This document shows, in pieces, positions 13,260 to 47,850 of a stretch of DNA of 64,000 nucleotides (the stretch's first letter is position 1; each line of letters opens with the position of its first letter). This DNA comes from an uncultured Methanosarcinales archaeon. Its GTDB lineage: Archaea; Nanobdellota; Nanobdellia; Woesearchaeales; DSVV01. Where the stretch lies: the NCBI GenBank assembly GCA_964453185.1, contig CAYVNN010000002.1:274308-338307 (forward strand), in the 5' to 3' direction. Position numbers and translations under genes: made by a program. Below the pieces are notes generated by a model, which ran no database searches, was not told the DNA's origin, and saw only the letters and a list, made by a program, of their open reading frames with translations.

Positions 13260-15140
13260 TCACTTAACCAACTCAACATCATGTCCTAGGTTAATAGCAT
13301 CTACTATTACTCTTCCTGGACCTGAATTCTTTTTTATTTTTATTATTCCTTTCTTACTGATTTTTGCAGTCATGTGAAAGTTTCCATTGATTAAAATATT
13401 AACTACTTTATTTCTTGTATTGTCATCTATGTAAAGATTAACATTTTTCTTTCCTATGTCATATCTAAATTCTATTCTTTTACCTTTAGAAACATTTACT
13501 TCTAATTCTCTTATATCAATTCCAATTCCAATATTTTTCTCAATCTCAGCTATTCTTTTTCCTTGCTTACCAATAAGAGAAGCAATCTTGTGTTCTGGAA
13601 CATAAACTATGCATTTGTGGTCGTCAACAACTTCAACTTTTGCATCTTCACAATATTGTTTTATTTCTTTCTCTATCTGTCTTGAAGCTAATTTCTTCGC
13701 AGGACTAGATCCACTATCACCTGAAACAGGAATAACAACAGTTTCTTCACCATAACTATATAATTCAAACTCCAGCTTCCCACTCTCAAAATCATTTACT
13801 ACAACAATTGGTCTTGCTAGATCTGCTTCAGTCATTCCTGAGGGAACTTTAACAACCATGCTTAAACTTAATATTTTACTAACATTACCATTCTTAATAA
13901 AAATAACAGTATCAATAACTTGTGGGATAACTCCTAATTCAATCCTACCAACAAACCTTTGGATTGCATCGATTGGATTAGTTGCGTGTACTATTCCAAT
14001 GAAACCAATTCCTGCTAATCTTAAATCTGCAAACAATTTGAAATCATCAGTATTTCTCATCTCATCAAAGAATGTATGATCAGGTCTACTTAATAACAGA
14101 ATGTCATGTACTTCTTGTGCATCTCCATGACTTATTGCATATTGTGTTATTGATTCAGGTAAAACTAAATCTCTTGGTGCTTCAACAGTCTTAACAACCT
14201 TATCCATTGAAGCATAATGTTCTGCTAGTGCTGCTGCAAATGTTGACTTACCCATCCCTGGAGATCCTGCAATCAATATTCCTTCTGCTTGTTCTCCAAC
14301 TCTGGTTAATAATTTTTCAGATAATTTATATTCTTTTAATGTTAATTTTTTAACAGGTCTAACTGCTGTAATTTCCCATGCATCTGAAAAAGGAGGTCTT
14401 GTTATAACTATTCTAAACTTATCTAACTGTACAATTGTAGATCCTGGTCTTTCAATCTCAATAAAACTATCTCTTCTAACATTTGCTTCTTCAATTATCT
14501 CTCTGCTTATATCTTGAATATCTTCTCTTGTTAATTTCTTTTTACCAACATGTTCAAATTTCCAGCTTCCTGGAAAACCTTTTTTAGCAAATGGTTGGAT
14601 ATTTTCTCTTAAATGCACAGACATGCTAGTTTTATCAAAGAACTTTTCTAATTTTAATTTTTTAGCTACAGAACCAACTTCAACAAAGATTGTTTGTATA
14701 CCTTTTGCTTCAGCAACTTTAGCTTGAACTTTATCAGCTGTCATTAACACAGCTCCTTTCTCATAAGCAAACTCTCTTATTAATGAATCAATCTCACCTA
14801 ATTTTGCATTTTGTATATCATAAAGTTTTGGTCGTGTACCAGCAAAGTCCAATTTTATATTATTCTTATCACAAACTTTTCTTATACTCTTTAATTCATT
14901 TAAACCAAGATAACCTATTGCTCTGTTACTATTAGCTTGATGTTCAAGTTCAGCAATGACTGCTTCATGTATCATAATAACCTGCGGAATTAAACTTTTA
15001 TCCAATATTTTTTTAGAAACATCTCCTTCAATGATTACTGATGTATCAGGAACTAGAATCTCAACTTTCTCTTTTTTTACCATATTCTCACCTTTTTTAG
15101 CATTTAAACCAGCGCCTTGAGTCATTATCAAATTATACAT
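13260..15140 (-). CDS. PIN domain - PhoH/PilT-like ATPase - KH domain protein (COG1855 family)
   Basis: An N-terminal PIN-like motif VEILVPDTSVIIEG, Walker A GSPGMGKST, and a C-terminal KH motif LIGKQGKRIAEIEKNIG. The real start is probably an internal Met near 15083. Confidence 0.7.
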   Translation of the reverse strand: MYNLIMTQGAGLNAKKGENMVKKEKVEILVPDTSVIIEGDVSKKILDKSLIPQVIMIHEAVIAELEHQANSNRAIGYLGLNELKSIRKVCDKNNIKLDFAGTRPKLYDIQNAKLGEIDSLIREFAYEKGAVLMTADKVQAKVAEAKGIQTIFVEVGSVAKKLKLEKFFDKTSMSVHLRENIQPFAKKGFPGSWKFEHVGKKKLTREDIQDISREIIEEANVRRDSFIEIERPGSTIVQLDKFRIVITRPPFSDAWEITAVRPVKKLTLKEYKLSEKLLTRVGEQAEGILIAGSPGMGKSTFAAALAEHYASMDKVVKTVEAPRDLVLPESITQYAISHGDAQEVHDILLLSRPDHTFFDEMRNTDDFKLFADLRLAGIGFIGIVHATNPIDAIQRFVGRIELGVIPQVIDTVIFIKNGNVSKILSLSMVVKVPSGMTEADLARPIVVVNDFESGKLEFELYSYGEETVVIPVSGDSGSSPAKKLASRQIEKEIKQYCEDAKVEVVDDHKCIVYVPEHKIASLIGKQGKRIAEIEKNIGIGIDIRELEVNVSKGKRIEFRYDIGKKNVNLYIDDNTRNKVVNILINGNFHMTAKISKKGIIKIKKNSGPGRVIVDAINLGHDVELVK

Positions 15141-15236
15141 GACACCGCACTAAAAGTCGTAGGCGTTTATCTTATTTCATTTTGAGTCAGACTCGCCCTG
15201 GTTTTAATGCGTTACTAAAACCGCCGTGGTACTAAT
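15100..15236 (+). repeat. Structured intergenic repeat, copy R1 (type-1 stem gcatttaaaccag/ctggttttaatgc), with 3' tail module
   Basis: gcatttaaaccag-CGCCTTGAGTCAtTATC...cgcactaaaagtcgtaggcg...cAGACTCGCC-ctggttttaatgc. A gccgtggtacta tail follows. Confidence 0.75.
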
Positions 15237-15237
15237 T

Positions 15238-17214
15238 TCACATTATTATTCTTTTAATAAACAATTTAACTTTATCCCAAAATGATAAATTAACTAATTC
15301 AACAACAAATGTTTGTTGTTCATTATAACTGTTTCCATATTCATCACTAAATTCAATAGATATCACAATTAAATTCTCTTGTTTAACAAAGTCATTACTA
15401 TTCATATTAATGGACACTGGTTCATCTTGAAATAATTCAACATATGTTATCATATGATTATTATTTCCAATCTCAATATTAACTTCAGCATTTAATGGAT
15501 TAGCTGTTGATTGTTTTAGTAATGTAAAATTAATTGTCATATTTTCTCCCAATCCAACTTCAGTTAATGCATTAATATCACTTATTTTGACACTTGGTTT
15601 ATCTATAACAACAAATTCAATTTCATCAGACTTTGAAATATCATCATTCTTTGCACTGATAAATATTTCATTTGTTCCAACAATAACTTCTTTCAAACCA
15701 AATTCAACAATATCTTCCTGTGCAATAGATAAACTTAATTCTTTACACTCGTCTTCATAACAAATTCCAATATTTTCCTGCATAGTATTGCCAACATTAC
15801 TTATGCTACATATTATTCCTGGTGTTTCTTCAATATAAAACAATTCACTTTCTATTCCACAATCTAAATAAACATCATCTGAATACACTTTTTCACTTTC
15901 TTCTGTTTTTTGTTCTTTGATTTCATTAATTTCCTCTAATGAATAATATCTATAATCTTTTCTTGATTGAAATACTACATCTTCTGATTCATTTGTTAAT
16001 GTGTATGCTCTGATATCAAAATAATATTCATATTGTTGTAGTAAACTGTCGTCGACAATCACTGTCCAGAACAATTTACCTTCTTCATTTGGTAATAATA
16101 ATACTTCTTGACTATAATCTTCTAAATAACTTAATCCTTCTGATCTTGAAACAAAGACAGTTAATGGAATATAATAATTAGCATTATTTTGAACAGTAAC
16201 CTCTAATAAATTATATGAACCAAAGCTTGTTGTTGTTTTAATTATTTCTGCATCTAATGTGTAAGGTGCTGTAAGTTCTTCACCTTTACTTATAACTCTT
16301 GCACTAATTTCTAAATCATGCACTAGTAAATTAACATTATTACCACTCCATTCATAATTAACACTTGTTTTGTCAGAATCTGCAGTATCTTTTAATTTAA
16401 TATGCGTTGCATCAATAAAACCTAATTGATTATATGTAACATCAAATGGTATCCATCCATATTCAGGAAAATAAACTTCAGCCCATCCATGTGCACCCCA
16501 ATTTTCAGTAAATAATTCAGATGTTGTGTATGAAACACCTGTAACAAATCTTGAAGGAACACCTATGCTTCTTAACATTGCAATAAACAAATTAGTCATC
16601 TCATCACAAACACCATATTTATTTTCAATAACCCAGCTTGCAGGTTGAGATGCTTCAGCTGTTACAGTGTTTAAATCATATTCAATATTATTATTAACCC
16701 ACTTAGCAATATCAAACACAACAACATAAAGATCATCTTCACCTGCAGCAATACTATTTGCTGTGTTTCTTATACTTGAATCACTATAATCAATTAAATC
16801 AGTTTCTTGTAAGTATGTAGAAACATTACTTGGTAAATCTAGTAATGGAAACTTTATTTTTTCATTAACCTCAACATATGCAGATTTTGTTTCAATATTA
16901 GAATCAAGTTCAAATTCTAATTTTGTTTCAATCGGGTTTTCCCATTCAAACTCAATTAGTCCTCCCACTTTTGTTGCAAAAGGTTCAGTATCAATGTTTG
17001 TAGGTATTTGTCTATAATCCTCTGCAGGATAAAACTCTAAGTTAGCTTTCACATAATTTAATTGATATCCAGTTGTTTTTGGTTCAATATCAATATAAGA
17101 ATCAATGTTTAGATGTAATGTTAATTCTTCATATGTATATAGTTCATCAGTTTCAGCAATAGCTAATGGAATAATTAATAGACATAATAGTAATATAATT
17201 GTTTTTTTAAACAT
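15238..17214 (-). CDS. Secreted transglutaminase-like (cysteine protease fold) large protein
   Basis: Signal peptide MFKKTIILLLCLLIIPLAIA. The transglutaminase core shows GVCDEMTNLFIAMLRSIGVPSRFVTGVSY then GAHGWAEVYF, placing the Cys and His residues in the expected spacing. Confidence 0.65.
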   Translation of the reverse strand: MFKKTIILLLCLLIIPLAIAETDELYTYEELTLHLNIDSYIDIEPKTTGYQLNYVKANLEFYPAEDYRQIPTNIDTEPFATKVGGLIEFEWENPIETKLEFELDSNIETKSAYVEVNEKIKFPLLDLPSNVSTYLQETDLIDYSDSSIRNTANSIAAGEDDLYVVVFDIAKWVNNNIEYDLNTVTAEASQPASWVIENKYGVCDEMTNLFIAMLRSIGVPSRFVTGVSYTTSELFTENWGAHGWAEVYFPEYGWIPFDVTYNQLGFIDATHIKLKDTADSDKTSVNYEWSGNNVNLLVHDLEISARVISKGEELTAPYTLDAEIIKTTTSFGSYNLLEVTVQNNANYYIPLTVFVSRSEGLSYLEDYSQEVLLLPNEEGKLFWTVIVDDSLLQQYEYYFDIRAYTLTNESEDVVFQSRKDYRYYSLEEINEIKEQKTEESEKVYSDDVYLDCGIESELFYIEETPGIICSISNVGNTMQENIGICYEDECKELSLSIAQEDIVEFGLKEVIVGTNEIFISAKNDDISKSDEIEFVVIDKPSVKISDINALTEVGLGENMTINFTLLKQSTANPLNAEVNIEIGNNNHMITYVELFQDEPVSINMNSNDFVKQENLIVISIEFSDEYGNSYNEQQTFVVELVNLSFWDKVKLFIKRIIM

Positions 17215-17290
17215 TATATAGTATATTTAAATAATCTATATAAATGTTTTTTGGAGAAGTAGATAAGATCATAATAATTAAAAAAGGTAA

Positions 17291-17529
17291 AGTTCGTACG
17301 ACTTTGCTTGCAAATGTCGTACTAGCTGGATTTTGGTTCAGCTTTTAGCTTGCCTAAAAGATGAGGGGATAGGGACTTTCAATGTCCTAAAATGAATTAG
17401 CACATCTTTGAACCCTAGTAGGCACTAAGCCAATAGATTGCTCAGTCATAGCTCCAGATGGAGCTCATCACTCAATGCCGTTTGATAACGCTTGAGTCTA
17501 TCCCGTTTGGCCACTCCGGCATCCCCTCA
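17291..17529. ncRNA. GC-rich structured ncRNA candidate of about 240 nt (class unresolved; RNase P RNA, SRP RNA or other)
   Basis: A sharp GC-rich island inside an otherwise AT-rich 350-nt intergenic gap. GAGGGGAU (17363-17370) pairs with AUCCCCUC (17521-17528). Several perfect local hairpins are present: CGUACGAC..GUCGUAC, CUUUUAG..CUAAAAG and AGCUCCA..UGGAGCU. Conserved SRP helix-8 (GGAAGGGAGCA) or RNase P P4 motifs were not convincingly found by eye. Confidence 0.35.
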
Positions 17530-17564
17530 ATATAAAACAAAAGAAATAAGTTTTATTTATAAAT

Positions 17565-17936
17565 TTAACTCAAACTTCTTAGATCAGATTCAATTGAAGC
17601 AAGATCATCTTCTAGTCTGTCTAACTGTGACTCTGTGAACTTAGGTAGAATCTTTTCATCGGTTTTTTTCTCAACAACAGATTTTACTCTCTTACTTTTT
17701 ACAACAGGTAACAACACCTTTAATCTTTCATTTGCCTCATTTATTTCAGAAACAGTTTGTTTTAACATTTCCATTTTTTGTATCTTTTGTGTTTTGAATT
17801 TTTTATACTTTTCTTCAAAACTTCTTAAACTGTCGATTGTAACTTTAGAACTCTCTAATAGATCTTTTTTAATCTGTTTGGGTTGTTCAATATGTACAAA
17901 ATATAATTTATCATCATCCATTTTATATGTTCTCAC
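17565..17936 (-). CDS. Coiled-coil protein (hypothetical), third gene of a three-gene operon
   Basis: 123 aa, K/E-rich with heptad-like pattern. It overlaps the upstream 77-aa ORF by 14 nt. Confidence 0.35.
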   Translation of the reverse strand: MRTYKMDDDKLYFVHIEQPKQIKKDLLESSKVTIDSLRSFEEKYKKFKTQKIQKMEMLKQTVSEINEANERLKVLLPVVKSKRVKSVVEKKTDEKILPKFTESQLDRLEDDLASIESDLRSLS

Positions 17937-18156
17937 ACTCGACTAAAACACTATCAATAAAGTTGATTTTATCTTCAACTTGATTTAAACTATTTTCCCA
18001 CATTTCTATCTCAGCTTCTTCATCTCTTTTTATCTTTTTAATGTCTTCAATTGTTCCTTTTGCTACCTCTATTTTTGTTTTCATTGTATTCAATAAAGAT
18101 AAAATTTCTTGATATGATTCAAGTTTTACAAAAACTGGTTTTTTATTCTCCATCAT
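17923..18156 (-). CDS. Small coiled-coil protein (hypothetical)
   Basis: 77 aa, helical and E/K-rich. It lies between the two other co-oriented genes. Confidence 0.3.
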   Translation of the reverse strand: MMENKKPVFVKLESYQEILSLLNTMKTKIEVAKGTIEDIKKIKRDEEAEIEMWENSLNQVEDKINFIDSVLVECENI

Positions 18157-18272
18157 TCATCACCTTTCAAATATAGCAAAATTAACAAATTTTGCTTATG
18201 CTCAAAAATTATAAATTTTTGGCACACCAAAAATGCTAATAGGATTTTTTAGTGTTACGAAAAACATTAAGT

Positions 18273-19037
18273 TTAATGCTTTGAGTATAATAACTTTTCT
18301 ACATCTTCTAATTGATCATTAAAATCTTCTAATGAGTTTTGCCATCTTTCAAATAACTTATCTTCTTCATCAGCTAAACTCTTTAATCTATATAATGTAT
18401 CATTTGATATGTTTGTTTCTTCACTTAATGAAGTGGAAACATTCATAAAATCAACAAAATCAGTGATTCTTATAAAATTAAAATTTTTACCTGGAATATG
18501 TTTAAGAACTGGTTGTTTGGGTTCTTCAATTTCTTCATTTAATTCTTGCATTGGTTCTTTTTCTAATTCTTCTTTTTCTTGCATTAATGCAGGGGGTTCA
18601 TCTAATTCTTTTTCTTGATCAGGTAATGGTGCAAACACTGGTTTCTTTTCCTCTACTGGTTTTTCAACCACTGGTTCTTTAATTGGTGCAGGTTTCATAT
18701 TTGAATTATCCATAAAATGATCTTCTTCGTGCGGTACTGGTTTTTCAGGTATAGTAGTTTCTACTTGAGTTTCACTTAAATCCATTGCAGTTCCTGCTAA
18801 GTTAGGTGGTAATGGAAACTCAGGTACTTCTTGACCTGACTTACTAAGTGCTCTTGGCAATTTTGGTGTTCCACCTTCTCTTCCTTTAGGTATGGATGGA
18901 GTATCATCAAAATCTAGAGAAGAATCATGACTAAGCCCTCCACCTTTCATAAGGCTAGGCTCTTCTAATGGCTGTGCTGTATTCCCAGAACTAGCTAGAT
19001 TTGGTTCACTCTTCTTTTTTTTACTAAAAAATCCCAC
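18273..19037 (-). CDS. Hypothetical protein with N-terminal amphipathic/basic segment, Pro/Glu-rich linker and C-terminal globular domain
   Basis: MGFFSKKKK at the N-terminus, then a roughly 150-aa P/E-rich low-complexity region, then a C-terminal domain NFNFIRITDFVDFMNV...LYRLKSLADEEDKLFERW. Confidence 0.35.
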   Translation of the reverse strand: MGFFSKKKKSEPNLASSGNTAQPLEEPSLMKGGGLSHDSSLDFDDTPSIPKGREGGTPKLPRALSKSGQEVPEFPLPPNLAGTAMDLSETQVETTIPEKPVPHEEDHFMDNSNMKPAPIKEPVVEKPVEEKKPVFAPLPDQEKELDEPPALMQEKEELEKEPMQELNEEIEEPKQPVLKHIPGKNFNFIRITDFVDFMNVSTSLSEETNISNDTLYRLKSLADEEDKLFERWQNSLEDFNDQLEDVEKLLYSKH

Positions 19038-19257
19038 ATAGTCACCCCTAATTTATAAATACTAAACACCTCAGTATTAAAACTTTTTGTACTATTGTTT
19101 GATAACAACAGCAAAACCACATAAACAAGAAGAGATACTAACCATTCTATATTTAACTTACTTTTATTTATTCTCATGTTGAAAAATACAAGTTCCCGTA
19201 TACCTATTCTATAATAGTAATCCATTTAAATTATATAGTCATGAAAGAATATTTAAG

Positions 19258-20214
19258 ATGTTTAAAAAAAAGAGAAAAACAACAAAACCTAATTTTAAGA
19301 ACAGAGACATTATTTCTATAAACGATTTATCTAAGCAAGATATTGTTTATGTATTGGAAACAGCGAAGAAGATAGAATCAATGGATATTATAAAGAAATC
19401 AAAACTTTTAAAGAACAAAATAATGGCTTCTTTGTTTTTTGAACCAAGTACAAGAACAAGGCTCAGCTTTGAATCAGCTATGACTCAACTTGGTGGTGAA
19501 ATTATTGGATTTGCAGATCCAAAAGTAAGTTCAGCCACAAAAGGTGAGACAGTCTTTGATACTATCAAGATGTTGGATGTATATTCTAATGTTATTATTA
19601 TGCGGCATCCGTTAGAGGGTGCAGCACGAGTTGCTTCAGAAGCAACAGGTAAACCAGTTATAAATGGAGGAGATGGTGCTAATCAACATCCAACTCAAAC
19701 ATTACTTGATCTTTATAGTATTAAAAAAACACAAGGTAGAATTTCTGGATTAAAAGTAGCATTAGTTGGTGATCTAAAGTATGGAAGAACAGTACATAGT
19801 TTAGCAATTGCTTTAACACATTTTGGATGTAAACAATATTTTGTTTCTCCTTCTATTCTTAAAATGCCAAGTTCAATTTGTGCAGCACTTAAGGATAAAA
19901 ATATTGACTTTAGTCTTCATGAAAAAATTGTAGACATTCTTGATGAAGTTGATATTTTATATATGACGAGAATACAAAAGGAAAGATTTGGTGATCCATT
20001 AGAATATGAAAAGGTAAAAGATGTTTATGTCTTGACAAAAGATATGCTTAAGAATGCAAAAAAGAATTTGAAAGTAATGCATCCATTACCAAGAGTTAAT
20101 GAGATTAGTGTTGATGTTGACACCACACCTCATGCTTATTATTTTCAACAAGCCGCTAATGGAATTCCAATAAGACAAGCATTATTATCATTAACAACAG
20201 GGGTGCTAAAATGA
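19258..20214 (+). CDS. pyrB: Aspartate carbamoyltransferase catalytic subunit
   Basis: The STRTR motif (FFEPSTRTRLSFE), a HPTQ-like motif (ANQHPTQTLLDL) and a C-terminal HPLP motif. Confidence 0.9.
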   Translation: MFKKKRKTTKPNFKNRDIISINDLSKQDIVYVLETAKKIESMDIIKKSKLLKNKIMASLFFEPSTRTRLSFESAMTQLGGEIIGFADPKVSSATKGETVFDTIKMLDVYSNVIIMRHPLEGAARVASEATGKPVINGGDGANQHPTQTLLDLYSIKKTQGRISGLKVALVGDLKYGRTVHSLAIALTHFGCKQYFVSPSILKMPSSICAALKDKNIDFSLHEKIVDILDEVDILYMTRIQKERFGDPLEYEKVKDVYVLTKDMLKNAKKNLKVMHPLPRVNEISVDVDTTPHAYYFQQAANGIPIRQALLSLTTGVLK

Positions 20215-20660
20215 GAGCATACAAAGTTTTTGCAATTGAAAATGGTACAGTTATTGACCATATCAGTAAAGGTTGTGCATTAAAAGTTATTAATATCTTA
20301 AATCTTCAACAATATGATCAAATTGTCACTGTTGGTATTAATCTTGAGAGTAAAAAAGAGGGTAAAAAGGACATTATTAAGATTGAAGACAAGACACTAA
20401 CAAAAAACGAACTTAATAAGATTGCATTAGTTGCACCAGATGCTAGTATTAACATCATCAAAGATCATAAAGTAGTGAAGAAGTTTAAAGTAAATGTACC
20501 TGATGAAATTTTAACAACAATAAAATGCAATAATCCAAAATGTATTACAAACCACCAAGGTGTTGAAACAATCTTTAACAAAGTCTCTGTTTCTCCTCTT
20601 AAACTTAAATGTCATTATTGTGAAAGAATAGTTGAAAACTCAGAAATACATTTAATTTAG
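20211..20660 (+). CDS. pyrI: Aspartate carbamoyltransferase regulatory subunit
   Basis: 149 aa with C-terminal zinc-domain cysteines (CNNPKCITNH...CHYCE). The start overlaps the pyrB stop by 4 nt. Confidence 0.9.
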   Translation: MRAYKVFAIENGTVIDHISKGCALKVINILNLQQYDQIVTVGINLESKKEGKKDIIKIEDKTLTKNELNKIALVAPDASINIIKDHKVVKKFKVNVPDEILTTIKCNNPKCITNHQGVETIFNKVSVSPLKLKCHYCERIVENSEIHLI

Positions 20661-20679
20661 TTTATTGTTAGCACAGTTA

Positions 20680-20817
20680 GCATTTAAACCAGCGCCTTGA
20701 GTCATTATCAAATATCCACATCACATCGCACTAAAAGTCGCAGGCGTTAGTCTTGTTTCACTTTGTACCAGACTCGCCCTGGTTTAAATGCGTACTAAAA
20801 GAGCCGTTGTGGTACTA
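20680..20817 (+). repeat. Structured intergenic repeat, copy R2 (type-1 stem), between pyrI and pyrD
   Basis: Same block order as R1 and 85-90% identical to it. The stem gcatttaaaccag/ctggtttaaatgc is perfect. The tail is agagccgttgtggtacta. Confidence 0.75.
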
Positions 20818-20841
20818 TTTATTATTTTTATGAGGAACTAA

Positions 20842-23724: not shown

Positions 23725-24391
23725 TGTGCATAAATTTGATGAGTTTCTTTTAAGAAATAATGTTGTTGGTTTTTTTGAGAATGAAATAACTTTAGTATCT
23801 GGTAGAAAATCACACTGGTATGCTAATTGTAGGGTTTTACAAGATAATGTTAATAATATTAATAGGTTATCTAAATTTATATTAAATTTTGTTGATGAAA
23901 GAAATCTTAGATTTGACTATTTTTTTGGTGTTCCAGAAGGTGTAACAAAATTAGCAACAGTTCTTAATTATAAAAGAGGGGTTATTAATGTTGACATGGA
24001 ACATAGATTAGTTATTGGCAGAGCAAAACCAAAATTGCATGGTATGCCCAAGGATAAATATTTTGTAGGTGATGTCAGACAAGATGATAGGGTTGTTATG
24101 ATTGAAGATGTTACAACAACAGGTGGATCATTATTAAGATCAATAGATAAGTTAAATGAAGTTGGTTTAAACATTGTTGCAGTGATTGGAATTGTGAACA
24201 GAATGGAAAAAAGGGATGATGGTAAATCAGTTGAACAAGCAATTGCAGCTAAAGGCATTCCTTACTTTTACTTAAGCAATTCATTAAGATTATTGCCAGT
24301 TGTTGCAAGAGATAAAAAGATTGATAAAGATATATTAAACAAAGTAGAACAAGGCTTTGAACAGTATGGTGTTGAGGTTTTAAAATTTTAA
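23714..24391 (+). CDS. pyrE: Orotate phosphoribosyltransferase
   Basis: PRPP-binding motif VVMIEDVTTTGGS and an N-terminal FxLxSGRxS region (ITLVSGRKSHWY). Confidence 0.75.
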   Translation: MSFDVHKFDEFLLRNNVVGFFENEITLVSGRKSHWYANCRVLQDNVNNINRLSKFILNFVDERNLRFDYFFGVPEGVTKLATVLNYKRGVINVDMEHRLVIGRAKPKLHGMPKDKYFVGDVRQDDRVVMIEDVTTTGGSLLRSIDKLNEVGLNIVAVIGIVNRMEKRDDGKSVEQAIAAKGIPYFYLSNSLRLLPVVARDKKIDKDILNKVEQGFEQYGVEVLKF

Positions 24392-24392
24392 A

Positions 24393-26978: not shown

Positions 26979-27010
26979 TTTATCCCTCCAATTTAATTAA
27001 TGCCATTAAT

Positions 27011-27117
27011 AATAGTGCCACCGCCTTGGCTCACTATCGGAATTATTTTCCAATAGCGACAAATGCTCGGATTCGTTCATCATATATTTGTATTGAATCA
27101 GAGCCGCTGTGGTACTA
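27011..27117 (+). repeat. Structured intergenic repeat, copy R6 (type-3 stem agtgccaccgcc/gccgctgtggtact; inner stem GGCTC/GAGCC)
   Basis: Block B is conserved (CGCCTTGGCTCACTATC). The 3' arm is cAGAGCCGC-tgtggtactatta, and both stems show compensatory changes relative to R1-R3. Confidence 0.65.
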
Positions 27118-27771
27118 TTATTTCACTACAGTATCTGATATTTCATTATCAAATACTTCCATTTCACCTTTATAGTTTTTAATTAATTCTTTCAACCTAA
27201 ATATAATTAAATGTTGAATATCACAATGGAATCCTTCTACTAATGGTGTTGAATCTTTTGGAACAATTATACATGCATCTGCTATTTCTTTGAATGCACC
27301 ACCATCAAATCCAGACATTCCTATAACTTGTCCACCTTTGTCTTTTATGAATTGCATTGCTTTTGTCAAGTTCTGACTCCATGGTCCACCTTTGTCTCTT
27401 CCTTTTCCACCATGTACACTTATAGCAATTCCAATATCTCCTGGCTGACAAAAGTTTTCTAATTGTCCAACATAAACATTTTCCCACCCTGAATCATTTA
27501 TCCATGCAGTTACTAATGGAACATTATCAAACAATGAGATTCCTTTGAATCTTCTTTTTCCTTCAATGATTGTTGTTTTTGTTAAGTCTGCTGCAAAATG
27601 TGTTGCAGTTGACGCACTTCCACCATTTCCAAACAAGAAAATTTGTTTATCATTTTTCCAAGCTTCAAATAAAATATTAATTGCTTTATCAATTTCATTC
27701 TTATCAATTGTTTCTGTAATATTAACAACTTCTTTCATATAATTTTCAATATATCCTATGTTATTTACCAT
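27118..27771 (-). CDS. gmhA: SIS-domain D-sedoheptulose-7-phosphate isomerase
   Basis: GNGGSASTATHFAADL is a GmhA-like SIS motif. The protein is 217 aa and sits next to heptose kinase, phosphatase and nucleotidyltransferase genes. Confidence 0.7.
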   Translation of the reverse strand: MVNNIGYIENYMKEVVNITETIDKNEIDKAINILFEAWKNDKQIFLFGNGGSASTATHFAADLTKTTIIEGKRRFKGISLFDNVPLVTAWINDSGWENVYVGQLENFCQPGDIGIAISVHGGKGRDKGGPWSQNLTKAMQFIKDKGGQVIGMSGFDGGAFKEIADACIIVPKDSTPLVEGFHCDIQHLIIFRLKELIKNYKGEMEVFDNEISDTVVK

Positions 27772-35277: not shown

Positions 35278-35279
35278 CT

Positions 35280-40692: not shown

Positions 40693-40701
40693 TCTTTTCT
40701 A

Positions 40702-40840
40702 GCATTTAAACCAGCGCCTTGAGTCACTATCTAAATATTTATCAAATCGCACTAAAAAATGTTGCGGTAGTAATATTATTTCTTAGAATCAGACTCGCCC
40801 TGGTTTAAATGTACTATTTATCAGAGCCGTTGTAGTATTA
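40702..40840 (+). repeat. Structured intergenic repeat, copy R3 (type-1 stem), between smc and dinD-like paralog 2
   Basis: gcatttaaaccag-CGCCTTGAGTCACTATC...cgcactaaaaaatgttgcg...cAGACTCGCC-ctggtttaaatg. The tail is cagagccgttgtagtatta. Confidence 0.75.
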
Positions 40841-41680
40841 TTATTTTAACTTCTTTTTATCTTTATTTTTTAAATAATTATCTTTAGATATAATTGATTC
40901 TCCTAAATTATTTTCTAAATCTTTTCTTGTTCTTTTTGCAATATTTCCACCTTTCTTAGCAGAATCTTTACATTCATCAAATCCTTGGGAATCTTTTTTC
41001 TTTGTTATGTCTGTAGTTGCTTTTTCTCCAATCATGTTTAAGATCAATTCCCAATCAGTCATGTGATCTCTTAAGTTTTGATTTGGTCTTTTTAGTCCTT
41101 TGTAATTCTTATATTCTCCTACTGTTTTTCCAAATGTAGCTTTACTAATTTCATTTGTTAATATTGCAAACTCTTTGCCTTCCTTAACATTTCTATTCTT
41201 CCATTCTTCTGTTAAATCTTGCCGTATTGCAATTCCTCTTAACCTTTTATCTATCCATTCCTTTGGATAACCTTTAAGTTCGTAATATTTTTTAATTCTA
41301 TCTTGTCCTAATTCAGGATTTTCTATTTCTTCAATTCTTTCATATCCAATCTGAGCTAACCATTGTTTAAATGGCTCTGCTTTCTTAGAAGGAATTGATT
41401 GAATAATTCTAAACATAGATTTAGTATTAGCACAGTCTGTAAGTCTCATTTTACCATCTTCTGCTTGTAGTTTCAACTGTACGATTATATCGTACACTTC
41501 AAATCCTTCTTCTTTTAATGTCCTTTTTAAATCAGACCAATACCTTTTTGGAATAGAACTTACTTCTAATGCTGTAACTACATCTACTACAGAAAAATAC
41601 CATTCATCATTATGCCATGTCCTTCTTATGTTTTTACCTTGAAAAACTACTAGTTTATTGACTTCCCCCATAAAAACCAC
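40841..41680 (-). CDS. Bro-N / DinD-like protein, paralog 2
   Basis: About 60% identical over its full length to the ORF at 7843..8697. The shared motifs are the same: NIRRTWHNDEWYFSVVDVV and YKGLKRPNQNLRDHMTDWELI. Confidence 0.65.
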   Translation of the reverse strand: MVFMGEVNKLVVFQGKNIRRTWHNDEWYFSVVDVVTALEVSSIPKRYWSDLKRTLKEEGFEVYDIIVQLKLQAEDGKMRLTDCANTKSMFRIIQSIPSKKAEPFKQWLAQIGYERIEEIENPELGQDRIKKYYELKGYPKEWIDKRLRGIAIRQDLTEEWKNRNVKEGKEFAILTNEISKATFGKTVGEYKNYKGLKRPNQNLRDHMTDWELILNMIGEKATTDITKKKDSQGFDECKDSAKKGGNIAKRTRKDLENNLGESIISKDNYLKNKDKKKLK

Positions 41681-41828
41681 TATGTATAATTAATATAAAA
41701 AATGAATTATTTTAAGCTTAAATCTTATTATCAGAGTGCATAATTTGTAATTTTCAATATTTCCTTTACCCAGAAGTAATCAAAAGAATAAACCTTTATA
41801 AACGTATATTCATTCCTTTATTATTAAC

Positions 41829-42872
41829 ATGAGAAGAACATTATTATTGACAAGTCTTTTATTTGGATCTGCGCAGGCAGCAGAACCTTCTTTTCTTAGA
41901 CCTCTTGAGTTAGAACAACAAGTTTTATCTGATCCTACAACTTCAGTTGTACCAGCAGTACAATCTTCTCTTGAATTTGCTCAAAGAATTGAAGAAACAC
42001 TTAGAGCTCAACAAGTATTTAGTTGGGAAGCCGTTGCAGGATATCAAACATGTGAAGGGGTAGTTTTACAAATCCAACAATTTGATCCTCATTCACCAAG
42101 TCACATTTCATTGTATAGAATTGTGAATAGAAATAATGACCCACAAGATATAAATAATTTACACGTTTTAAAATATGATCCTGATTCAATTGATCCAACT
42201 TTATTTCATCCAGTCCTTGGTTACAGTGGGAATTATTTAGAATTACAAGAACCTCTAAAAGCTAGAGCAATAGCTTCTAGATATGAAATCTTTTTAGATG
42301 GTTTAAGGACAACAGTATATGAAATTAATTCAGACCTTAAAGAAAGAAGATTAGCATTGCTTCGTGAAGAAGATATTGACTATGCTAGGGCAGTTGGTCA
42401 AATTGACGAACAACATAAAACTTTTGAAGATGTTTTTCATGATTATTTTACCAATCTTAGAGGTTTAGAACATACTTCTCAATTATCTGATAAAACATAT
42501 AAAAAAACACGTTATTCTCATGGTTGGAAACTAACACCAAGAAGAAGTTCTCCTTGTAGAGAAACTGCAAAGAACGCTATGATTATGAAAAATCTTGCAG
42601 GAATTGATCGTGATGAATATGTAACTGTTATGTATGCTGATGGAGATAATTATGTTGTTTATAATGAAGCAACTGGTTTAACATATGACATTGAACAAAG
42701 AAGGGATAAACCTATTCAAGATATTTTACCAACAATACTTAGAAGACTAGAGGGACCTGTTCTTTTAGATGAGAGTATTTTTCCAGAGGGATTATCTACA
42801 AGACTTCCAAAATCAACTAGTATTCGACCACTAGGTTCTGAGAATTACAGATTTCTTTTATTAGAAGATTAA
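41829..42872 (+). CDS. Secreted hypothetical protein with bacterial-type signal peptide
   Basis: MRRTLLLTSLLFGSAQA|AEP is a classic Sec signal with an AxA cleavage site. The composition is atypical, and no known domain was recognised. Confidence 0.4.
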   Translation: MRRTLLLTSLLFGSAQAAEPSFLRPLELEQQVLSDPTTSVVPAVQSSLEFAQRIEETLRAQQVFSWEAVAGYQTCEGVVLQIQQFDPHSPSHISLYRIVNRNNDPQDINNLHVLKYDPDSIDPTLFHPVLGYSGNYLELQEPLKARAIASRYEIFLDGLRTTVYEINSDLKERRLALLREEDIDYARAVGQIDEQHKTFEDVFHDYFTNLRGLEHTSQLSDKTYKKTRYSHGWKLTPRRSSPCRETAKNAMIMKNLAGIDRDEYVTVMYADGDNYVVYNEATGLTYDIEQRRDKPIQDILPTILRRLEGPVLLDESIFPEGLSTRLPKSTSIRPLGSENYRFLLLED

Positions 42873-44008
42873 TCTTCTTTTGGTGTATACTTCTCAACTA
42901 TTTTAATAATTTCTTTAGCTGTTTTTTTCCAATTATAATTCTTAACAATTGTTTCTCTAGCTTTTCGACCTAAATATTCTCTTAACTCTTTGTCTTTATA
43001 CAGAATTTCAATTTTCATAGCTAATACTGTTGGGTTTTTGAACGGAAACAACATACCATTCTCTCTTTCTTTAATATATTCTTTAACATAACCAACTGGT
43101 GTAACAACAGGAGGAATACCACAAGCCATTGCTTCCATTGTTGCTAATGATGTTGTCTCAGTTAAACTTGACAATACAAAAACATCCATTGTTTGAAGAT
43201 AAGGAACAACATTATCTTGTGAACCAACCATAATAATATTTCTTGAAGAACTAAACTCTTCTTCTAAATCTTTTATTCCTTTTCCAACAATAAGTAATTT
43301 AACATTATCATATTTTCTTTCTAACCTTCTAAATGCTCTATATAATGTTATTAAATTTTTTTCTCTACCTATTCTTCCACAAAAGCCAATAACAAATGTT
43401 CCTTTCTCAACAGCCAATAAATCTTTAGCCTTTTCTTTATTTTTTGTTGGAACAAATATTTCTGTATCAGTTCCTAACGCAACAACCTCTTTGCTTGCTT
43501 TAATACCTACTTTTGTTAATTTTTCTAATGTTTCAAGAGAAGGACATATTAATAAATCACATTTACTATAGAAATATTTAGCTAATGTTTTTGTTCCGAT
43601 ATTAATTGCATGTTTAAATCTGTCAATACTTTTTGTTGTTAATTCCCAATCAATTGAATGTATGTATGAAATAACAGGTTTATTATATTTTTTTGCAGCT
43701 AAAATTCCACACATTCCAATTGGACCAATGCATTGATTAAATACAACATCTGCTTTTTCAATTATTTTTTTAATTTTTGAATATTCAAATTTACTAAAAT
43801 AAATATCTGCAACTTCCATATTGTACAATGGCAATCTAATAACAACTGCTCCAGTGATTCCTTTAAACTTACCTGGAAACTTAGGTGCTAAGACAGTTAT
43901 CTTATATTCATCTTTTAGTTTTGGAATTATCTCTGATAAAAACCTAGTTACACCATCCCATCTGGGCATAAAACAATCAGTTGTTATTACAAGATGTTTT
44001 TTCTTCAT
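42869..44008 (-). CDS. Glycosyltransferase family 4 (PIG-A/BshA/MshA-like)
   Basis: C-terminal motif SSLTETTSLATMEAMACGIPPVVTPVG. The likely start is MKKKHLVITTD. The longer annotated start would overlap a repeat element. Confidence 0.7.
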   Translation of the reverse strand: MKKKHLVITTDCFMPRWDGVTRFLSEIIPKLKDEYKITVLAPKFPGKFKGITGAVVIRLPLYNMEVADIYFSKFEYSKIKKIIEKADVVFNQCIGPIGMCGILAAKKYNKPVISYIHSIDWELTTKSIDRFKHAINIGTKTLAKYFYSKCDLLICPSLETLEKLTKVGIKASKEVVALGTDTEIFVPTKNKEKAKDLLAVEKGTFVIGFCGRIGREKNLITLYRAFRRLERKYDNVKLLIVGKGIKDLEEEFSSSRNIIMVGSQDNVVPYLQTMDVFVLSSLTETTSLATMEAMACGIPPVVTPVGYVKEYIKERENGMLFPFKNPTVLAMKIEILYKDKELREYLGRKARETIVKNYNWKKTAKEIIKIVEKYTPKED

Positions 44009-44025
44009 TTTTATTACCTTAACTA

Positions 44026-44154
44026 ATAATGCCACCGCTTTAAGCATTAGTACTGTCGCCTTGGCTCACTATCAAATAAAATCATAAGTACGCACTAAAC
44101 TATGTTGCGTTAGTAGTATCTGCACATATAGTCAGAGCCGCCACAGTACTAGTG
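44026..44154 (+). repeat. Structured intergenic repeat, copy R7 (composite: partial type-3 5' arm + type-4 element gcattagtactgt/acagtactagtgc)
   Basis: aataatgccaccgc, then gcattagtactgt-CGCCTTGGCTCACTATC...cgcactaaactatgttgcg...cAGAGCCGCC-acagtactagtgc. Confidence 0.65.
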
Positions 44155-44165
44155 CCTTGCTATTA

Positions 44166-44831
44166 TTATTTTATTTTAGTAAATACCTCAGCATATCTAT
44201 ATCCATATTCTAAACCATTTAATATTGCTCTAGTATAAATTATTGGTATCATTTGTAATAATACCATCTTCTGGCTGTTATGTAATTTAAATGCTTTGAT
44301 CATAACATCTAAAGTTTTAGTAATATCTACAACAAGTTTTGGTTCATTTCTTTTTCTAATATTAATTGGGTTCCATACATCAAATGAATAGACATCACAT
44401 TTATACTTTAATTCATTTAATATTTCTAATATTATTTTTAATACTGCTTGATGATCTGGGTGTGGGTCATCTATTGAATGCGTAAAGATTTTTGTTGGCT
44501 TTTTTTCTTTTATCACTCTTGTAACACTTTTTTTAAGATCTTTATTCTTGAACTCTTCTTTAAACTTTCCTTCCTTTAATCCATAGTATATAACTCCACT
44601 TCCTCCCATTACTTTATCACATTTCTGTGATTCAACAACTCTTGTTTCAACAATTGCCTTTCTATTGTAATGTGGATGAGAGCTTTCACCATATGAAAAT
44701 ATGTATGTATAGAAATTCTTGCCTTCTTTTGCATATTTAACTAATGTTCCACCACAACCAATTACTTGGTCATCATTATGTGCACAGAAAACAAACACAT
44801 TTTCTTCTTTCTTACTATCTTGATTCTTCAT
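44166..44831 (-). CDS. PIG-L / LmbE family N-acetylglucosaminyl deacetylase
   Basis: VFCAHNDDQVIGCGG matches the AHPDDE motif, and HPDH is also present. 221 aa. Confidence 0.7.
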   Translation of the reverse strand: MKNQDSKKEENVFVFCAHNDDQVIGCGGTLVKYAKEGKNFYTYIFSYGESSHPHYNRKAIVETRVVESQKCDKVMGGSGVIYYGLKEGKFKEEFKNKDLKKSVTRVIKEKKPTKIFTHSIDDPHPDHQAVLKIILEILNELKYKCDVYSFDVWNPINIRKRNEPKLVVDITKTLDVMIKAFKLHNSQKMVLLQMIPIIYTRAILNGLEYGYRYAEVFTKIK

Positions 44832-44882
44832 ATGTAATAGGTATTTATAAATTAATTAATAAAGTTTGTTAATATTAGTATT

Positions 44883-44998
44883 AAAACCAGCATTTGTACT
44901 AGCGCCTTAACTCACTATATATTAACCCATGTGTTGCTCTAAAAAATGTTGCGGTAATAAGAATATACTTAGAGCCAGAGTCGCCCTAGTACAAATGC
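44883..44998 (+). repeat. Structured intergenic repeat, copy R4 (type-2 stem gcatttgtactag/ctagtacaaatgc, preceded by aaaaccag remnant)
   Basis: aaaaccag-catttgtactag-CGCCTTAACTCACTAT...gttgctctaaaaaatgttgcg...cAGAGTCGCC-ctagtacaaatgc. It lies in the divergent promoter region between the PIG-L gene and ppdK. Confidence 0.7.
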
Positions 44999-45096
44999 AT
45001 ATTCTTATAATCACTATATGTTCTATTTCCACAACATTTTTTAACAAGAACACTGTCCATATTTAGATAATTACTATTATAGGGAGGGATTTAAAA

Positions 45097-47721
45097 ATGG
45101 AGAAAAATGTATACTTTTTTGGAGCAGGAAAAACAGATGGAAATCAATCAATGAAGGAAGAATTGGGAGGAAAAGGTGCAAATCTAGCAGAAATGGCTAA
45201 TTTAGGAATAAATGTTCCACCTGGCTTTACAATCTCAACAAAGGCATGTGAATTATTTTATGAATCTAATAAAACATTACCACTTAATGTTCTTGAAGAA
45301 ATTCATCAGAATCTAGAACAACTAGAATCTTCTATGGGTAAAAAACTAGGAGATATAAATGATCCATTGCTAGTATCAGTAAGAAGTGGAGCAGCTATCT
45401 CAATGCCAGGAATGATGGATACTGTTCTTAATTTGGGGCTAAATGATACAACAATACAAGCATTAATACAAAAGAGTAATAATCCCAGATTTGCTTATGA
45501 TGCATACAGACGATTATTACAAATGTTTGGAGATGTTGTAATGAATGTTTCCCATACTAAGTTTGAACATGCATTAACAAAATTAAAAGAGACAAAAGGA
45601 GTTAAGTATGATACAGAATTAAATTCAGATGATCTAAAATCTTTAATTGAATCATATAAACAAATAATTAAAGAAACCACTGGTAAAGATTTTCCACAAG
45701 AACCAATTGAACAGCTTAATATGGCTGTCTCTGCGGTTTTCTCTTCGTGGAATAATAATAGAGCAATTTCATACAGAAGGATTAATAAAATTCATGGATT
45801 AAAAGGAACAGCAGTTAATGTTCAATCAATGGTATTTGGTAATATGGGTGAATCATCAGGTACAGGTGTTTGTTTTACAAGAGATCCATCAACAGGTGCA
45901 AAAGTATTTTATGGTGAATATTTAATGAATGCACAAGGTGAAGATGTTGTTGCAGGTACCAGAACACCACAACCACTTGATACACTAAATAATGTAATGA
46001 CAAACTGTTATCAAGAACTTACTGCTATTATGGACAAATTAGAAAAACATTATACAGATATGCAAGACATGGAATTTACAATTCAGGAAGGTAAATTATA
46101 TATTTTACAGACAAGAACAGGTAAAAGAACAGCACATGCAGCAGTTAAGATTGCAGTCGACATGGAACAGGAAGGATTAATTAACAAAGAAACTGCAATA
46201 TTAAGAGTTCAACCTGATCAATTAGATCAATTATTACATAAACAATTAGATGCTGTTGCAAAACAAGAAGCAGAGATTGTTGCCAAAGGTTTACCTGCTT
46301 CACCTGGTGCAGCTGTTGGCCAGGTTGTGTTTAATGCAGATGATGCGAAGAAATGGGCAGATGAAGGTAAAATTGTTATTTTAGTAAGAACAGAAACATC
46401 ACCTGAAGATATTGAAGGTATGCATGCAGCTCAAGGTATCTTAACATCACGAGGAGGGATGACTTCACATGCAGCAGTTGTTGCAAGAGGAATGGGTAAA
46501 TGTTGTGTTGCAGGTTGTGATGATGTTTTGATTAAAGAAAATGAAAGATTCATGCAGGTTGCTGATTTAAAAATAAATGAAGGTGATTGGATTACACTTG
46601 ATGGTTCAACAGGTGAAGTTATTAATGGTAAAATGCCTGTTGTTGATCCTGAGTTAAAGAGTGAGTTTAAAACATTAATGTCGTGGGCAGATGAAGTTAA
46701 GACATTAATTGTTAGAACAAACGCTGACACACCATATGATTCAAAAGTTGCTAGGGATTTTGGTGCAGAAGGAATTGGCTTATGTAGAACTGAGCATATG
46801 TTTTTTGAAGGTGACAGAATTAAAGCAGTTAGAGAGATGATTCTTTCAAAAGATCTCGACGGAAGAAAAAATGCTTTGGCAAAACTTAAACCAATGCAAA
46901 AGAATGATTTTAAAGGATTGTTTGAAGTAATGAGTGGTCATCCAGTTGTAATTAGATTACTTGATCCTCCATTACACGAATTCTTACCAAAAGAAGATGA
47001 AGATATTAAAACAATGGCAACAGAGATGAATATTGAAGTTAATAAAATCAAAGACTTAATCAAATCATTACATGAGTTCAATCCTATGCTTGGTTTCAGA
47101 GGATGTAGATTAGCAGTAAGATATCCAGAGATTGGAGAAATGCAAGCTCAGGCAATACTTGAAGCAGCAGTAGAAGCAAAACAACAAGGACATGATGCAC
47201 AACCATGGATTGAAGTTCCATTGATTGGAGATGTTAAAGAGTTTACATTGGTTAAAGACATTATTGAAAATGTTGCAAATGGATTAAATTTAGAGAGAGG
47301 GAGAGATTATCAAATTGGAACAATGATTGAAGTTCCGAGAGCAGCATTAACAGCAGACGAGATTGCAAAAGAAACAGACTTTATGTCTTTCGGTACAAAT
47401 GATTTAACTCAAATGGGTTGTGGATTTAGTAGAGATGATTCAGGTAAATTTCTTAGTGAATATGTTGAAAAAGGGATCTATGCTGTAGATCCTTTCCAAA
47501 GCATTGATCAGCAAGGAATTGGTGAGTTGATGAAGATTTGTGTTAACAAAGCTAGATCAATTAAACCTGATATACATATTGGTATTTGCGGTGAACATGC
47601 TGGTGAACCTGTATCAGTTGAATTCTGTCATAAGATAGGATTAAACGATGTAAGCTGTTCTCCATACAGGGTACCAATAGCTAGACTAGCAGCAGCACAT
47701 GCAGTTATTAAAGGTAAGTAA
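45097..47721 (+). CDS. ppdK: Pyruvate, phosphate dikinase
   Basis: The 874-aa length, the N-terminal GGKGANLAEM ATP-grasp region, the phospho-His region GGMTSHAAVVARGMG, and the C-terminal PEP-utilising TIM barrel with GICGE. Confidence 0.85.
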   Translation: MEKNVYFFGAGKTDGNQSMKEELGGKGANLAEMANLGINVPPGFTISTKACELFYESNKTLPLNVLEEIHQNLEQLESSMGKKLGDINDPLLVSVRSGAAISMPGMMDTVLNLGLNDTTIQALIQKSNNPRFAYDAYRRLLQMFGDVVMNVSHTKFEHALTKLKETKGVKYDTELNSDDLKSLIESYKQIIKETTGKDFPQEPIEQLNMAVSAVFSSWNNNRAISYRRINKIHGLKGTAVNVQSMVFGNMGESSGTGVCFTRDPSTGAKVFYGEYLMNAQGEDVVAGTRTPQPLDTLNNVMTNCYQELTAIMDKLEKHYTDMQDMEFTIQEGKLYILQTRTGKRTAHAAVKIAVDMEQEGLINKETAILRVQPDQLDQLLHKQLDAVAKQEAEIVAKGLPASPGAAVGQVVFNADDAKKWADEGKIVILVRTETSPEDIEGMHAAQGILTSRGGMTSHAAVVARGMGKCCVAGCDDVLIKENERFMQVADLKINEGDWITLDGSTGEVINGKMPVVDPELKSEFKTLMSWADEVKTLIVRTNADTPYDSKVARDFGAEGIGLCRTEHMFFEGDRIKAVREMILSKDLDGRKNALAKLKPMQKNDFKGLFEVMSGHPVVIRLLDPPLHEFLPKEDEDIKTMATEMNIEVNKIKDLIKSLHEFNPMLGFRGCRLAVRYPEIGEMQAQAILEAAVEAKQQGHDAQPWIEVPLIGDVKEFTLVKDIIENVANGLNLERGRDYQIGTMIEVPRAALTADEIAKETDFMSFGTNDLTQMGCGFSRDDSGKFLSEYVEKGIYAVDPFQSIDQQGIGELMKICVNKARSIKPDIHIGICGEHAGEPVSVEFCHKIGLNDVSCSPYRVPIARLAAAHAVIKGK

Positions 47722-47749
47722 TTAGCACCACTTTAATTAGCATTTGTAC

Positions 47750-47850
47750 TGGCGCCTTGAGTCACTATCTAATAACTTATAATACCGCACTAAAATATGT
47801 TGCGTTGATAATATAATTACATAGAATCAGACTCGCCCTAGTACAAATGC
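47750..47850 (+). repeat. Structured intergenic repeat, copy R5 (type-2 stem gcatttgtactgg/ctagtacaaatgc), downstream of ppdK
   Basis: gcatttgtactgg-CGCCTTGAGTCACTATC...cgcactaaaatatgttgcg...cAGACTCGCC-ctagtacaaatgc. Confidence 0.75.

Follow-up and report, generated by a model that had tools for sequence, protein, structure and literature searches.

The DNA analysed here is a window of 64,000 nt (64 kb) from an uncultured archaeon assigned to the Woesearchaeales (assembly GCA_964453185.1, contig CAYVNN010000002.1, positions 274,308 to 338,307 of the forward strand), and our subject is a family of intergenic hairpin repeats dispersed through it. The window has a G+C content of 30% and its genes are of archaeal type, among them a PRK13764-type PIN-domain ATPase (the match to PINA is weaker), SMC, PyrI and an archaeal ribosomal protein operon. 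The best-named relatives of its PyrB belong to metagenome-assembled genomes of Candidatus Woesearchaeota and Nanoarchaeota and share only 72-73% identity with it. The host is a Woesearchaeota-like archaeon of the DPANN group that has been met only in metagenomes. The repeat was first noticed by inspection of the window (hereafter the original prediction, which numbered the copies differently); we name the hairpin units R1 to R7 in window order.

R1 (15098-15212, +) has the arms GCATTTAAACCAG / CTGGTTTTAATGC, in which a single T·T mismatch occurs, and its neighbours on either side, the gene of the PIN-domain PRK13764-type ATPase and a transglutaminase-like gene, are both on the minus strand. 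R2 (20678-20793, +) sits inside the pyr operon, in the spacer between pyrI and pyrD. R3 (27007-27122, +) is a short-armed ("D-type") unit, in which the arms TAATAATAGTGCCAC / GTGGTACTATTATT are joined straight to the core. The spacer of the convergent SMC and Bro-N genes holds R4 (40700-40813, +), and R5 (44042-44156, +; arms GCATTAGTACTGT / ACAGTACTAGTGC, inner stem GGCTC/GAGCC) is found between two minus-strand genes, for a GT4 glycosyltransferase and a PIG-L deacetylase. R6 (44888-45000, +), which has the arms GCATTTGTACTAG / CTAGTACAAATGC and an inner stem, AACTC/GAGTC, that includes one A·C, separates the divergent deacetylase and pyruvate phosphate dikinase (PPDK) genes. R7 (47738-47850, +), whose arms GCATTTGTACTGG / CTAGTACAAATGC include a single G·T, is placed between the convergent PPDK gene and rpiB. 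The seven contexts comprise two convergent gene pairs, one divergent pair, three pairs of minus-strand genes and one pair of plus-strand genes.

A scan of the window with the 5′ box of the repeat, CGCCTTG(A/G)(G/C)TCA(C/T)TATC, returned seven matches at two or fewer mismatches, all on the plus strand, against a chance expectation of 0. An nhmmer profile built from the copies (run with --max) and a covariance model each recovered exactly seven full copies in the 64 kb, again all on the plus strand, together with short additional 3′-end matches close downstream of three copies. Two further copies were found on contig L124, which was reached via a paralogue of a TnpB gene just outside the window, comes from the same samples, has a G+C content of 30% and probably belongs to the same genome. 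R8 (L124 6553-6665, +) is short-armed and resembles R3; R9 (L124 6686-6849, −) is long-armed and has an apical insertion of about 50 nt (L124 6735-6785) that contains two small hairpins of its own (ACTTTACGCAGTAAAGT and TAATCTCGATCTTTAGTCGGGATTA). R8 and R9 occupy one common spacer and face each other. The host total is therefore nine copies in ~112 kb of assigned sequence (seven in the window, two on L124), and profile and covariance-model searches found no further copies in the other ~48 kb of host-assigned sequence.

Across the nine copies the unit measures ~113-165 nt, with complementary arms of 13-15 nt, and stop codons interrupt every reading frame of the repeat. A search of viral contigs and BLAST searches of plasmids and phages gave nothing relevant to the repeat. 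Of two box scans of the metagenome contig collection, the first returned no match and the second three chance matches, and a scan of genome contigs with a 17-mer box gave at least 102 loci, all those checked being chance matches that lacked the 3′ box. The count of seven copies in the original prediction and its account of their varied contexts (convergent genes, divergent genes, the pyr operon) are both borne out, the latter by the gene calls. Its statement that the copies always lie on one strand holds inside the window, where a 7/7 pattern has a chance probability of 1 in 64, but the opposed copies on L124 break the pattern. The copies are also intergenic as described, except that at their ends they abut or run into start or stop codons of the adjacent genes.

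Each window copy is predicted to fold into one long rod-like hairpin (z −3.8 to −5.7 against dinucleotide shuffles). Reading inwards from the ends, all nine copies have in common a terminal stem of 13 bp; a 1x1 mismatch, C·C or (in R3, R8 and R9) C·T; a GC/GC helix of 2 bp and, after it, a 3-nt CUU bulge that never varies; a helix of 5 bp, with covariation in its two outer pairs and constant inner pairs (U:A and C:G); a 4x4 internal loop, A-Y-U-A against R-Y-C-A, that is paired in no copy; and, past a weaker 4-bp helix, an apical region that varies and contains a small hairpin, the loop of which reads CUAAAA in 6/9 copies. Seen as linear sequence, the left end of the unit consists of a variable arm and the invariant box CGCCTT-helix-AYTAT, and the right end of the box TCAGA-helix-GCC and the complementary arm.

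The stems are maintained by compensatory changes. The RNAalifold consensus holds 24 pairs (24-27 in the consensus overall), of which 12 show pair-keeping changes on both sides. In the nine-copy alignment 93% of pair cells are standard, compared with 81% for shuffled partners and 30-42% after the partners are displaced by one to three columns, and the double changes (in 12 pairs and 33 cells) are reached by only 0-2 of 500 shuffles. The mean pairwise difference between copies is 34% in the terminal stem and 42% in the apical region, as against 17% in the inner helices and 16% in the non-helical features; 97.8% of the terminal-stem cells are nevertheless paired. The most conserved parts of the unit are the two boxes together with the C·C mismatch, the CUU bulge and the 4x4 loop, and the arm positions closest to the core are the most variable.

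These data agree with the arm variants listed in the original prediction, with its two inner stems, GAGTC/GACTC and GGCTC/GAGCC, to which we add a third, AACTC/GAGTC at 44903 (R6), and with its central point that the fold rather than the arm sequence is conserved. A middle block, cgcacuaaaa(n)auguugcg, that had been ascribed to all copies is present at 40715, 44057 and 47753 and nearly so at 44903, but appears as a variant (..AAAAGTCGYAGGCG) at 15113 and 20693 and is lacking at 27022. Covariation of this kind does not in itself mark an RNA gene, as the same pattern has been described for the REPINs of bacteria, whose presumed acting form is folded single-stranded DNA (PMC3116915).

A stem whose sequence is nearly free, set with irregularities that are fixed, fits a reader of a folded single strand; a reader of double-stranded DNA would be blind to the irregularities. 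The irregularities also make the two strands and the two ends of the unit distinguishable. This bears directly on the view that the repeats are ordinary MITEs (miniature transposable elements with inverted repeats) of the cut-and-paste kind, whose arms would be double-stranded terminal inverted repeats (TIRs) bound by DDE transposases and whose arm variants would derive from several related parent insertion sequences (ISs). Small, non-coding, dispersed and intergenic units with terminal inverted repeats are what such elements look like, and, both ends having to suit one transposase, subfamilies with matching arm pairs would be expected. The nine copies have, however, four arm types plus a variant combined with nearly identical boxes, so that several cognate transposases would be needed in a genome of probably ~1 Mb (a size that is inferred), and no IS with such ends is present in the ~112 kb. 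The core-proximal arm positions vary most while the mismatches and bulges, invisible to a protein that reads the double strand, do not vary. The T·T mismatch of R1 falls at a position where R9 has A:T, switched from T:A, and R1 looks like an intermediate of the pair switch, a further point against this view. Target-site duplications (TSDs), which the original prediction had named as a mark of a plain MITE, were found at no boundary. Taken together, we regard the cut-and-paste explanation as improbable.

Which strand folds is indicated less clearly. The reverse strand folds about equally well, and RNA of the minus strand folds as well as or better than that of the plus strand in 6/7 window copies. 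The non-Watson-Crick cells, read on the plus strand, comprise 11 G·T and 3 A·C (one-sided binomial, ~0.03), a modest hint that the plus strand is the folding strand. About half of the pair switches are of the transversion type (A:T to T:A, G:C to C:G); as these cannot pass through a wobble pair, correction of one arm by the other within the hairpin is as plausible as stepwise selection.

The arms fall into four types, TAGCATTTAAACCAG, TAGCATTTGTACTRG, AAGCATTAGTACTGT and TAATAATAGTGCCAC, which are interrelated mainly by transitions; the last is attached directly to the core in R3 and R8. A relic of a second end, of the R3 type, stands beside 6/7 long-armed copies. Downstream of R1, R2 and R4, at a distance of ~10 nt, there is (CA)GAGCCGYTGTGGTACTATT, a second 3′ box with its arm, and upstream of R5, R9 and, less clearly, R7 there is TAATAATGCCAC(CGC) with a T-rich linker. 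The downstream relics are CCGCCGTGGTACTAATT beside R1 (15221-15237, +), GAGCCGTTGTGGTACTATTTAT beside R2 (20801-20822, +; a 3′ box plus arm as in the short-armed R3) and CAGAGCCGTTGTAGTATTATTATT beside R4 (40822-40845, +). The upstream relics in the window are TAATAATGCCACCGC beside R5 (44024-44038, +), which consists of a D-type arm and the start of a 5′ box, and TAATTAGCACCAC beside R7 (47719-47731, +); R5 also has a degenerate outer 3′ arm, TATTATTATT, at 44161-44170.

R1 and R2 are the closest pair, with 87% identity over the 131 nt that run from the inner 5′ arm through the outer 3′ relic. As the identity extends through the relic, either the relic moved with the unit or both copies stem from one compound copy. 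The two differ at 1 of 40 stem positions and at 10 of 58 apical positions; the closest copies differ by ~20% in their unconstrained parts and have intact stems. The arms and the apical parts group the copies differently: R4 shares its arms with R1 and R2 and its interior with R7, and R6 and R7 have the same arms and different inner stems. Such groupings are expected of repeats that exchange sequence and suggest exchange between copies. Nesting, spare ends and mosaicism are traits of dispersed mobile repeats and are hard to explain for independent RNA genes.

At each site the copies occupy almost the entire spacer between genes, and they show no common relation to gene direction or transcription. 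The PPDK stop codon (TAA, 47719-47721) coincides with the first three bases of the outer arm of R7, and three further stops fall within a terminal ATTATTA, namely those of a gmhA-like gene (27118-27120, in the 3′ arm of R3), of the Bro-N gene (40841-40843, in the R4 relic) and of the deacetylase gene (44166-44168, in the degenerate outer 3′ arm of R5). The stop of the transglutaminase-like gene (15238-15240) lies directly against the R1 relic. The terminal TAATAAT/ATTATTA gives TAA stops on both strands, and insertions at gene ends would for this reason be harmless. Two predicted start codons lie within copies, that of a 626-aa call for the ATPase and the ATG of the GT4 glycosyltransferase at 44047 in the 5′ arm of R5, and the gene calls start or extend inside repeats at 15084-15140 and 44042-44047; the true start of the PIN-domain ATPase is likely to be 15083, with GGTGAG upstream. 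Assemblies are affected as well: contig L109 terminates at window position 20706, within R2, and contig L143 ends ~50 nt short of R4.

The distribution of the repeat among relatives is restricted. No copy was found in ~58 kb from the three nearest relatives of which sequence was retrieved (contigs L116, L117 and L148), and within the sampled sequence the family is confined to the lineage of the window. In L117 the pyrI stop and the pyrD start overlap, whereas the corresponding spacer in the window is 181 nt long and filled by R2; this empty-site comparison rests on one distant relative.

The strongest competitor is a structured RNA used by the host, either as a set of small RNA genes or as hairpins in mRNAs that serve processing, stability, termination or insulation, with selection acting on the RNA fold locus by locus. 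Roles of this kind have been proposed for the bacterial ERIC, REP and Correia elements. The strong covariation, the three conserved unpaired features and the conserved apical loop would all suit an RNA, as would the excess of G·U over A·C cells on the plus strand and the stems that remain unbroken at ~20% divergence elsewhere; moreover, all copies lie in spacers that must be transcribed in a very compact genome. A single cis-acting role is nevertheless hard to reconcile with the orientation of the copies, since, where the flanking genes are co-directional, the favoured plus strand runs antisense to them at R1, R3 and R5, R2 being the one sense case. Aligned flanks of the copies show no conserved promoter-like block upstream, the minus-strand RNA, as described above, folds equally well or better in 6/7 copies, and the absence of the family from the three relatives, the compound or truncated copies and the 50-nt insertion also speak against an RNA in the service of the host. 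No Rfam family matches at the gathering score anywhere in the window, and at E<=10 only far sub-threshold matches to miRNA, snoRNA or leader families appear, on the minus strand. Overall we consider a host-used RNA unlikely, though less so than cut-and-paste transposition.

Specific RNA classes were examined and rejected. A K-turn or box C/D-type RNA that binds L7Ae, which is defined by a C-stem, a 3-nt bulge and tandem sheared G·A / A·G pairs, can be drawn only on the minus strand (register GAG-UCU-GA.. / ..GA-CUC), where position 2b, which must be A, reads G in R2, R6 and R8 (3/9 copies) and the bulge bases can also pair normally. A bulge-helix-bulge motif is excluded by a central helix of 5 bp and by a second "bulge" that is a 4x4 loop. 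An origin from tRNA was likewise rejected: ARAGORN reports no tRNA in the repeats, and neither ARAGORN nor Rfam at its gathering score reports a tRNA or any other family in the 64 kb, despite a full ribosomal protein operon at 53-64 kb.

The shared orientation of the window copies raises a third explanation, that they are sites of recombination recognised as folded single strands, as are the attC/VCR sites of integrons, or hairpins concerned with replication or segregation; such sites would be oriented by replication and would not move by themselves. The length of ~115-130 nt, an imperfect palindrome that varies in sequence yet keeps its fold and a set of unpaired bases, and the co-orientation of 7/7 window copies all agree with it, and a gene for an Orc1/Cdc6-family replication initiator (TIGR02928, above cut-off) lies to one side, at 6732-7802 (−). 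The attC core sites are, however, missing from the arms: GCATTTAAACCAG / CTGGTTTAAATGC and variants give no in-register match to R″ (RYYYAAC) or R′ (GTTRRRY), and the other arm types are without even a partial resemblance to the cores. There is no integrase in the window, the intervening genes are housekeeping operons (pyr, heptose pathway, SMC, PPDK) rather than cassettes, and R8 and R9 are adjacent and opposed. Neither origin recognition box (ORB)-like repeats nor a large spacer adjoins orc1/cdc6 in the window, and the GC skew of the window tracks gene direction only. We therefore think this explanation highly improbable.

Beside orc1/cdc6 lies a Bro-N gene (7843-8697) that is a paralogue of the one beside R4 (40841-41680), the two sharing ~72% DNA identity over 300 nt. 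Numerous DPANN lineages, and some others, have Bro-N homologues that share 70-80% identity; conservation on this scale is well above that of PyrB and suggests that the gene moves horizontally. As the gene is conserved across DPANN, we rejected its interpretation as a multi-copy paralogue family.

We favour, with a probability of about 0.55, the view that the repeats are palindromic mobile elements, non-coding and non-autonomous, which form a lineage-specific family and are recognised as a folded single strand. Between the two options left by the original prediction, a novel RNA family or an unusual MITE-like element, the evidence leans to the MITE-like one on account of the absence of the repeat from three relatives, the abutting pyrI and pyrD genes, the compound copies, the 50-nt insertion, the mosaicism and the lack of any relation to gene direction. 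We infer that the family is mobile, that it moves by way of a single-stranded intermediate and that a trans-acting enzyme exists. In the proposed mechanism one strand would fold into the rod, and a protein supplied in trans would read this fold together with its three fixed irregularities (the C·C or C·T mismatch, the CUU bulge and the 4x4 loop AYUA/RYCA) and ignore the sequence of the arms. Mutations in the arms would be tolerated only where the partner base follows, which would produce the covariation. New copies would have inserted where a few non-coding bases separate genes, frequently within or next to older copies, and would have left compound units with a spare end.

Several observations weigh against this reading. 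No transposase or integrase gene is present in the 64-kb window, and the only transposon genes in the ~112 kb are two TnpB-only elements of the IS605 type. No consistent direct repeat was found at any possible boundary of the copies, the longest matches being of 5-7 nt, AT-rich and at inconsistent positions (old copies could have lost their TSDs), and no consistent motif flanks the copies. Insertion polymorphism was not seen, all the assemblies being clonal: across many JGI, ENA and Logan assemblies, every contig with window proteins is 99.9-100% identical to the window, and no other strain or sister species was found among them. Near-identical copies are absent (87% in the best pair), and nothing points to recent activity. 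Should the copies be old, their very few broken pairs imply either constraint or in-place correction of one arm by the other, which would fit a host function too. Finally, the examination rests on only nine copies.

A source for the missing enzyme was sought in the host-assigned sequence. Neither the window nor a further ~48 kb assigned to the host has an insertion sequence with ends like those of the repeat, and no called gene of the ~112 kb matches Y1_Tnp or RAYT. The two TnpB-only elements (IS605/IS1341-type) lie at L120 19002-20111 (−), ~6 kb beyond the window start, and at L124 10001-11164 (+). Their proteins are 84% identical, ~1.37 kb of shared DNA defines their ends, and TnpA is found beside neither. 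We rejected an origin of the repeat from the ends of these resident elements, which have no similarity to it and give no profile or covariance-model match.

Hairpin repeats of palindromic sequence that carry compensatory changes are familiar from bacteria; no such family seems to have been reported so far from a DPANN archaeon, and a full-text literature search found nothing on intergenic repeats in Woesearchaeota. DPANN genomes are very small and tightly packed, and the persistence of dispersed repeats in one of them is unexpected. The combination of a conserved fold, conserved irregularities and free stem sequence points to a partner that reads structure, either an enzyme or an RNA-binding molecule. 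The repeats may represent the first archaeal system of mobility or recombination that is read by structure on a single strand (REPIN-RAYT-like or attC-like), with an enzyme that would recognise the rod by its fixed C·C mismatch, CUU bulge and 4x4 loop and with copies that would persist under selection, or a new class of structured RNA co-opted by its DPANN host, but we hold so far-reaching an outcome to be doubtful. More generally, compensatory covariation among repeats within one genome does not by itself identify an RNA gene. A practical consequence is that at least one assembly breaks within a copy and that predicted genes begin, or are prolonged, inside the repeats.

Some further observations concern the host and its relatives. 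In assembly ERZ23499064 the gene for ribosomal protein L6 contains 61 nt (L114 10787-10849) where the window has 33 nt (62607-62641), a difference that is either a strain variant or an assembly artefact. A locus followed as a route to more host sequence (P0162) was set aside as coming from a different organism. The relative L116 (JGI 3300021183) has two identical 32-nt blocks, CTACTGTAAACAATAATGCCACGGTGGGACAA, 134 nt apart (10173-10204 and 10307-10338), which by eye appear to be the shared leader and 5′ end of two adjacent tRNA-like genes. A match of AATAATGCCAC in L116 to the outer arm of the repeat falls in this leader and 5′ end and is probably a coincidence.

Among known systems, archaeal MITEs with TIRs (the Sulfolobus SM-type and haloarchaeal elements) share their TIRs with an identifiable parent IS and have TSDs. 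The present repeats resemble them as short, non-coding, dispersed units with inverted ends and differ in that the arm sequence is free and the fold fixed, with neither a parent IS nor a TSD found. PATEs (palindrome-associated transposable elements), which derive from the ends of IS200/IS605 elements, are likewise non-coding and structured, lack TSDs and are expected to behave in a strand-specific way, and TnpB-type IS605 elements are present on the sampled contigs. The ends of IS200/IS605 elements, however, each form their own hairpin, whereas the two ends of the archaeal repeat pair with each other, and the ends of the resident TnpB elements share nothing with the repeat. With attC/VCR sites the repeat has in common a presumed recognition of the folded single strand, a size in the range of ~60-140 nt, fixed unpaired bases that set polarity and the co-orientation of neighbours; it differs from them in having no R″/R′ cores, no nearby integrase and no cassette array, its copies being kilobases apart across housekeeping operons.

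ERIC/IRU, the Rickettsia palindromic elements and the MITE-like repeats of the Correia type are bacterial imperfect palindromes of ~100-150 nt that lie in transcribed spacers in either orientation, often wedged at gene ends. Their fold is maintained by paired changes, and TA duplications occur in Correia and in many ERIC copies. The archaeal repeat is like them in the size of the palindrome, in its intergenic placement at gene ends and in a fold kept by paired changes. These bacterial elements are unrelated to it in sequence, and the archaeal repeat, at which no TA duplication was found, has arms in two nested tiers and is flanked in many copies by spare ends.

The closest parallel in behaviour is with the REPINs of bacteria, REP doublets that form hairpins and are mobilised by RAYT (TnpA-REP) proteins. 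A REPIN is ~100 nt long and folds into a hairpin; its ends are conserved, its spacer varies and compensatory changes are common (PMC3116915). REPINs have been stated to be "not detected in archaea" (bioRxiv 10.1101/2021.07.10.451892). The present host is an archaeon, and the repeat has no sequence similarity to REPINs. Its ends are not REP palindromes (14-20 nt), the self-complementary cores in the arms being only 4-6 nt long (TTTAAA, GTAC, AGTACT), and there is no conserved GTAG/CGTC tag; nor was a RAYT (Y1 HUH) gene seen in the ~112 kb in which the nine copies were found. Membership in the REPIN-RAYT system is accordingly not established. What the two have in common is an extragenic unit of ~100 nt with conserved inverted ends and a variable spacer, a long hairpin of the single strand, compensatory changes, no evident TSD and a non-autonomous character, a resemblance that suggests a family that works like a REPIN rather than one that is a REPIN.

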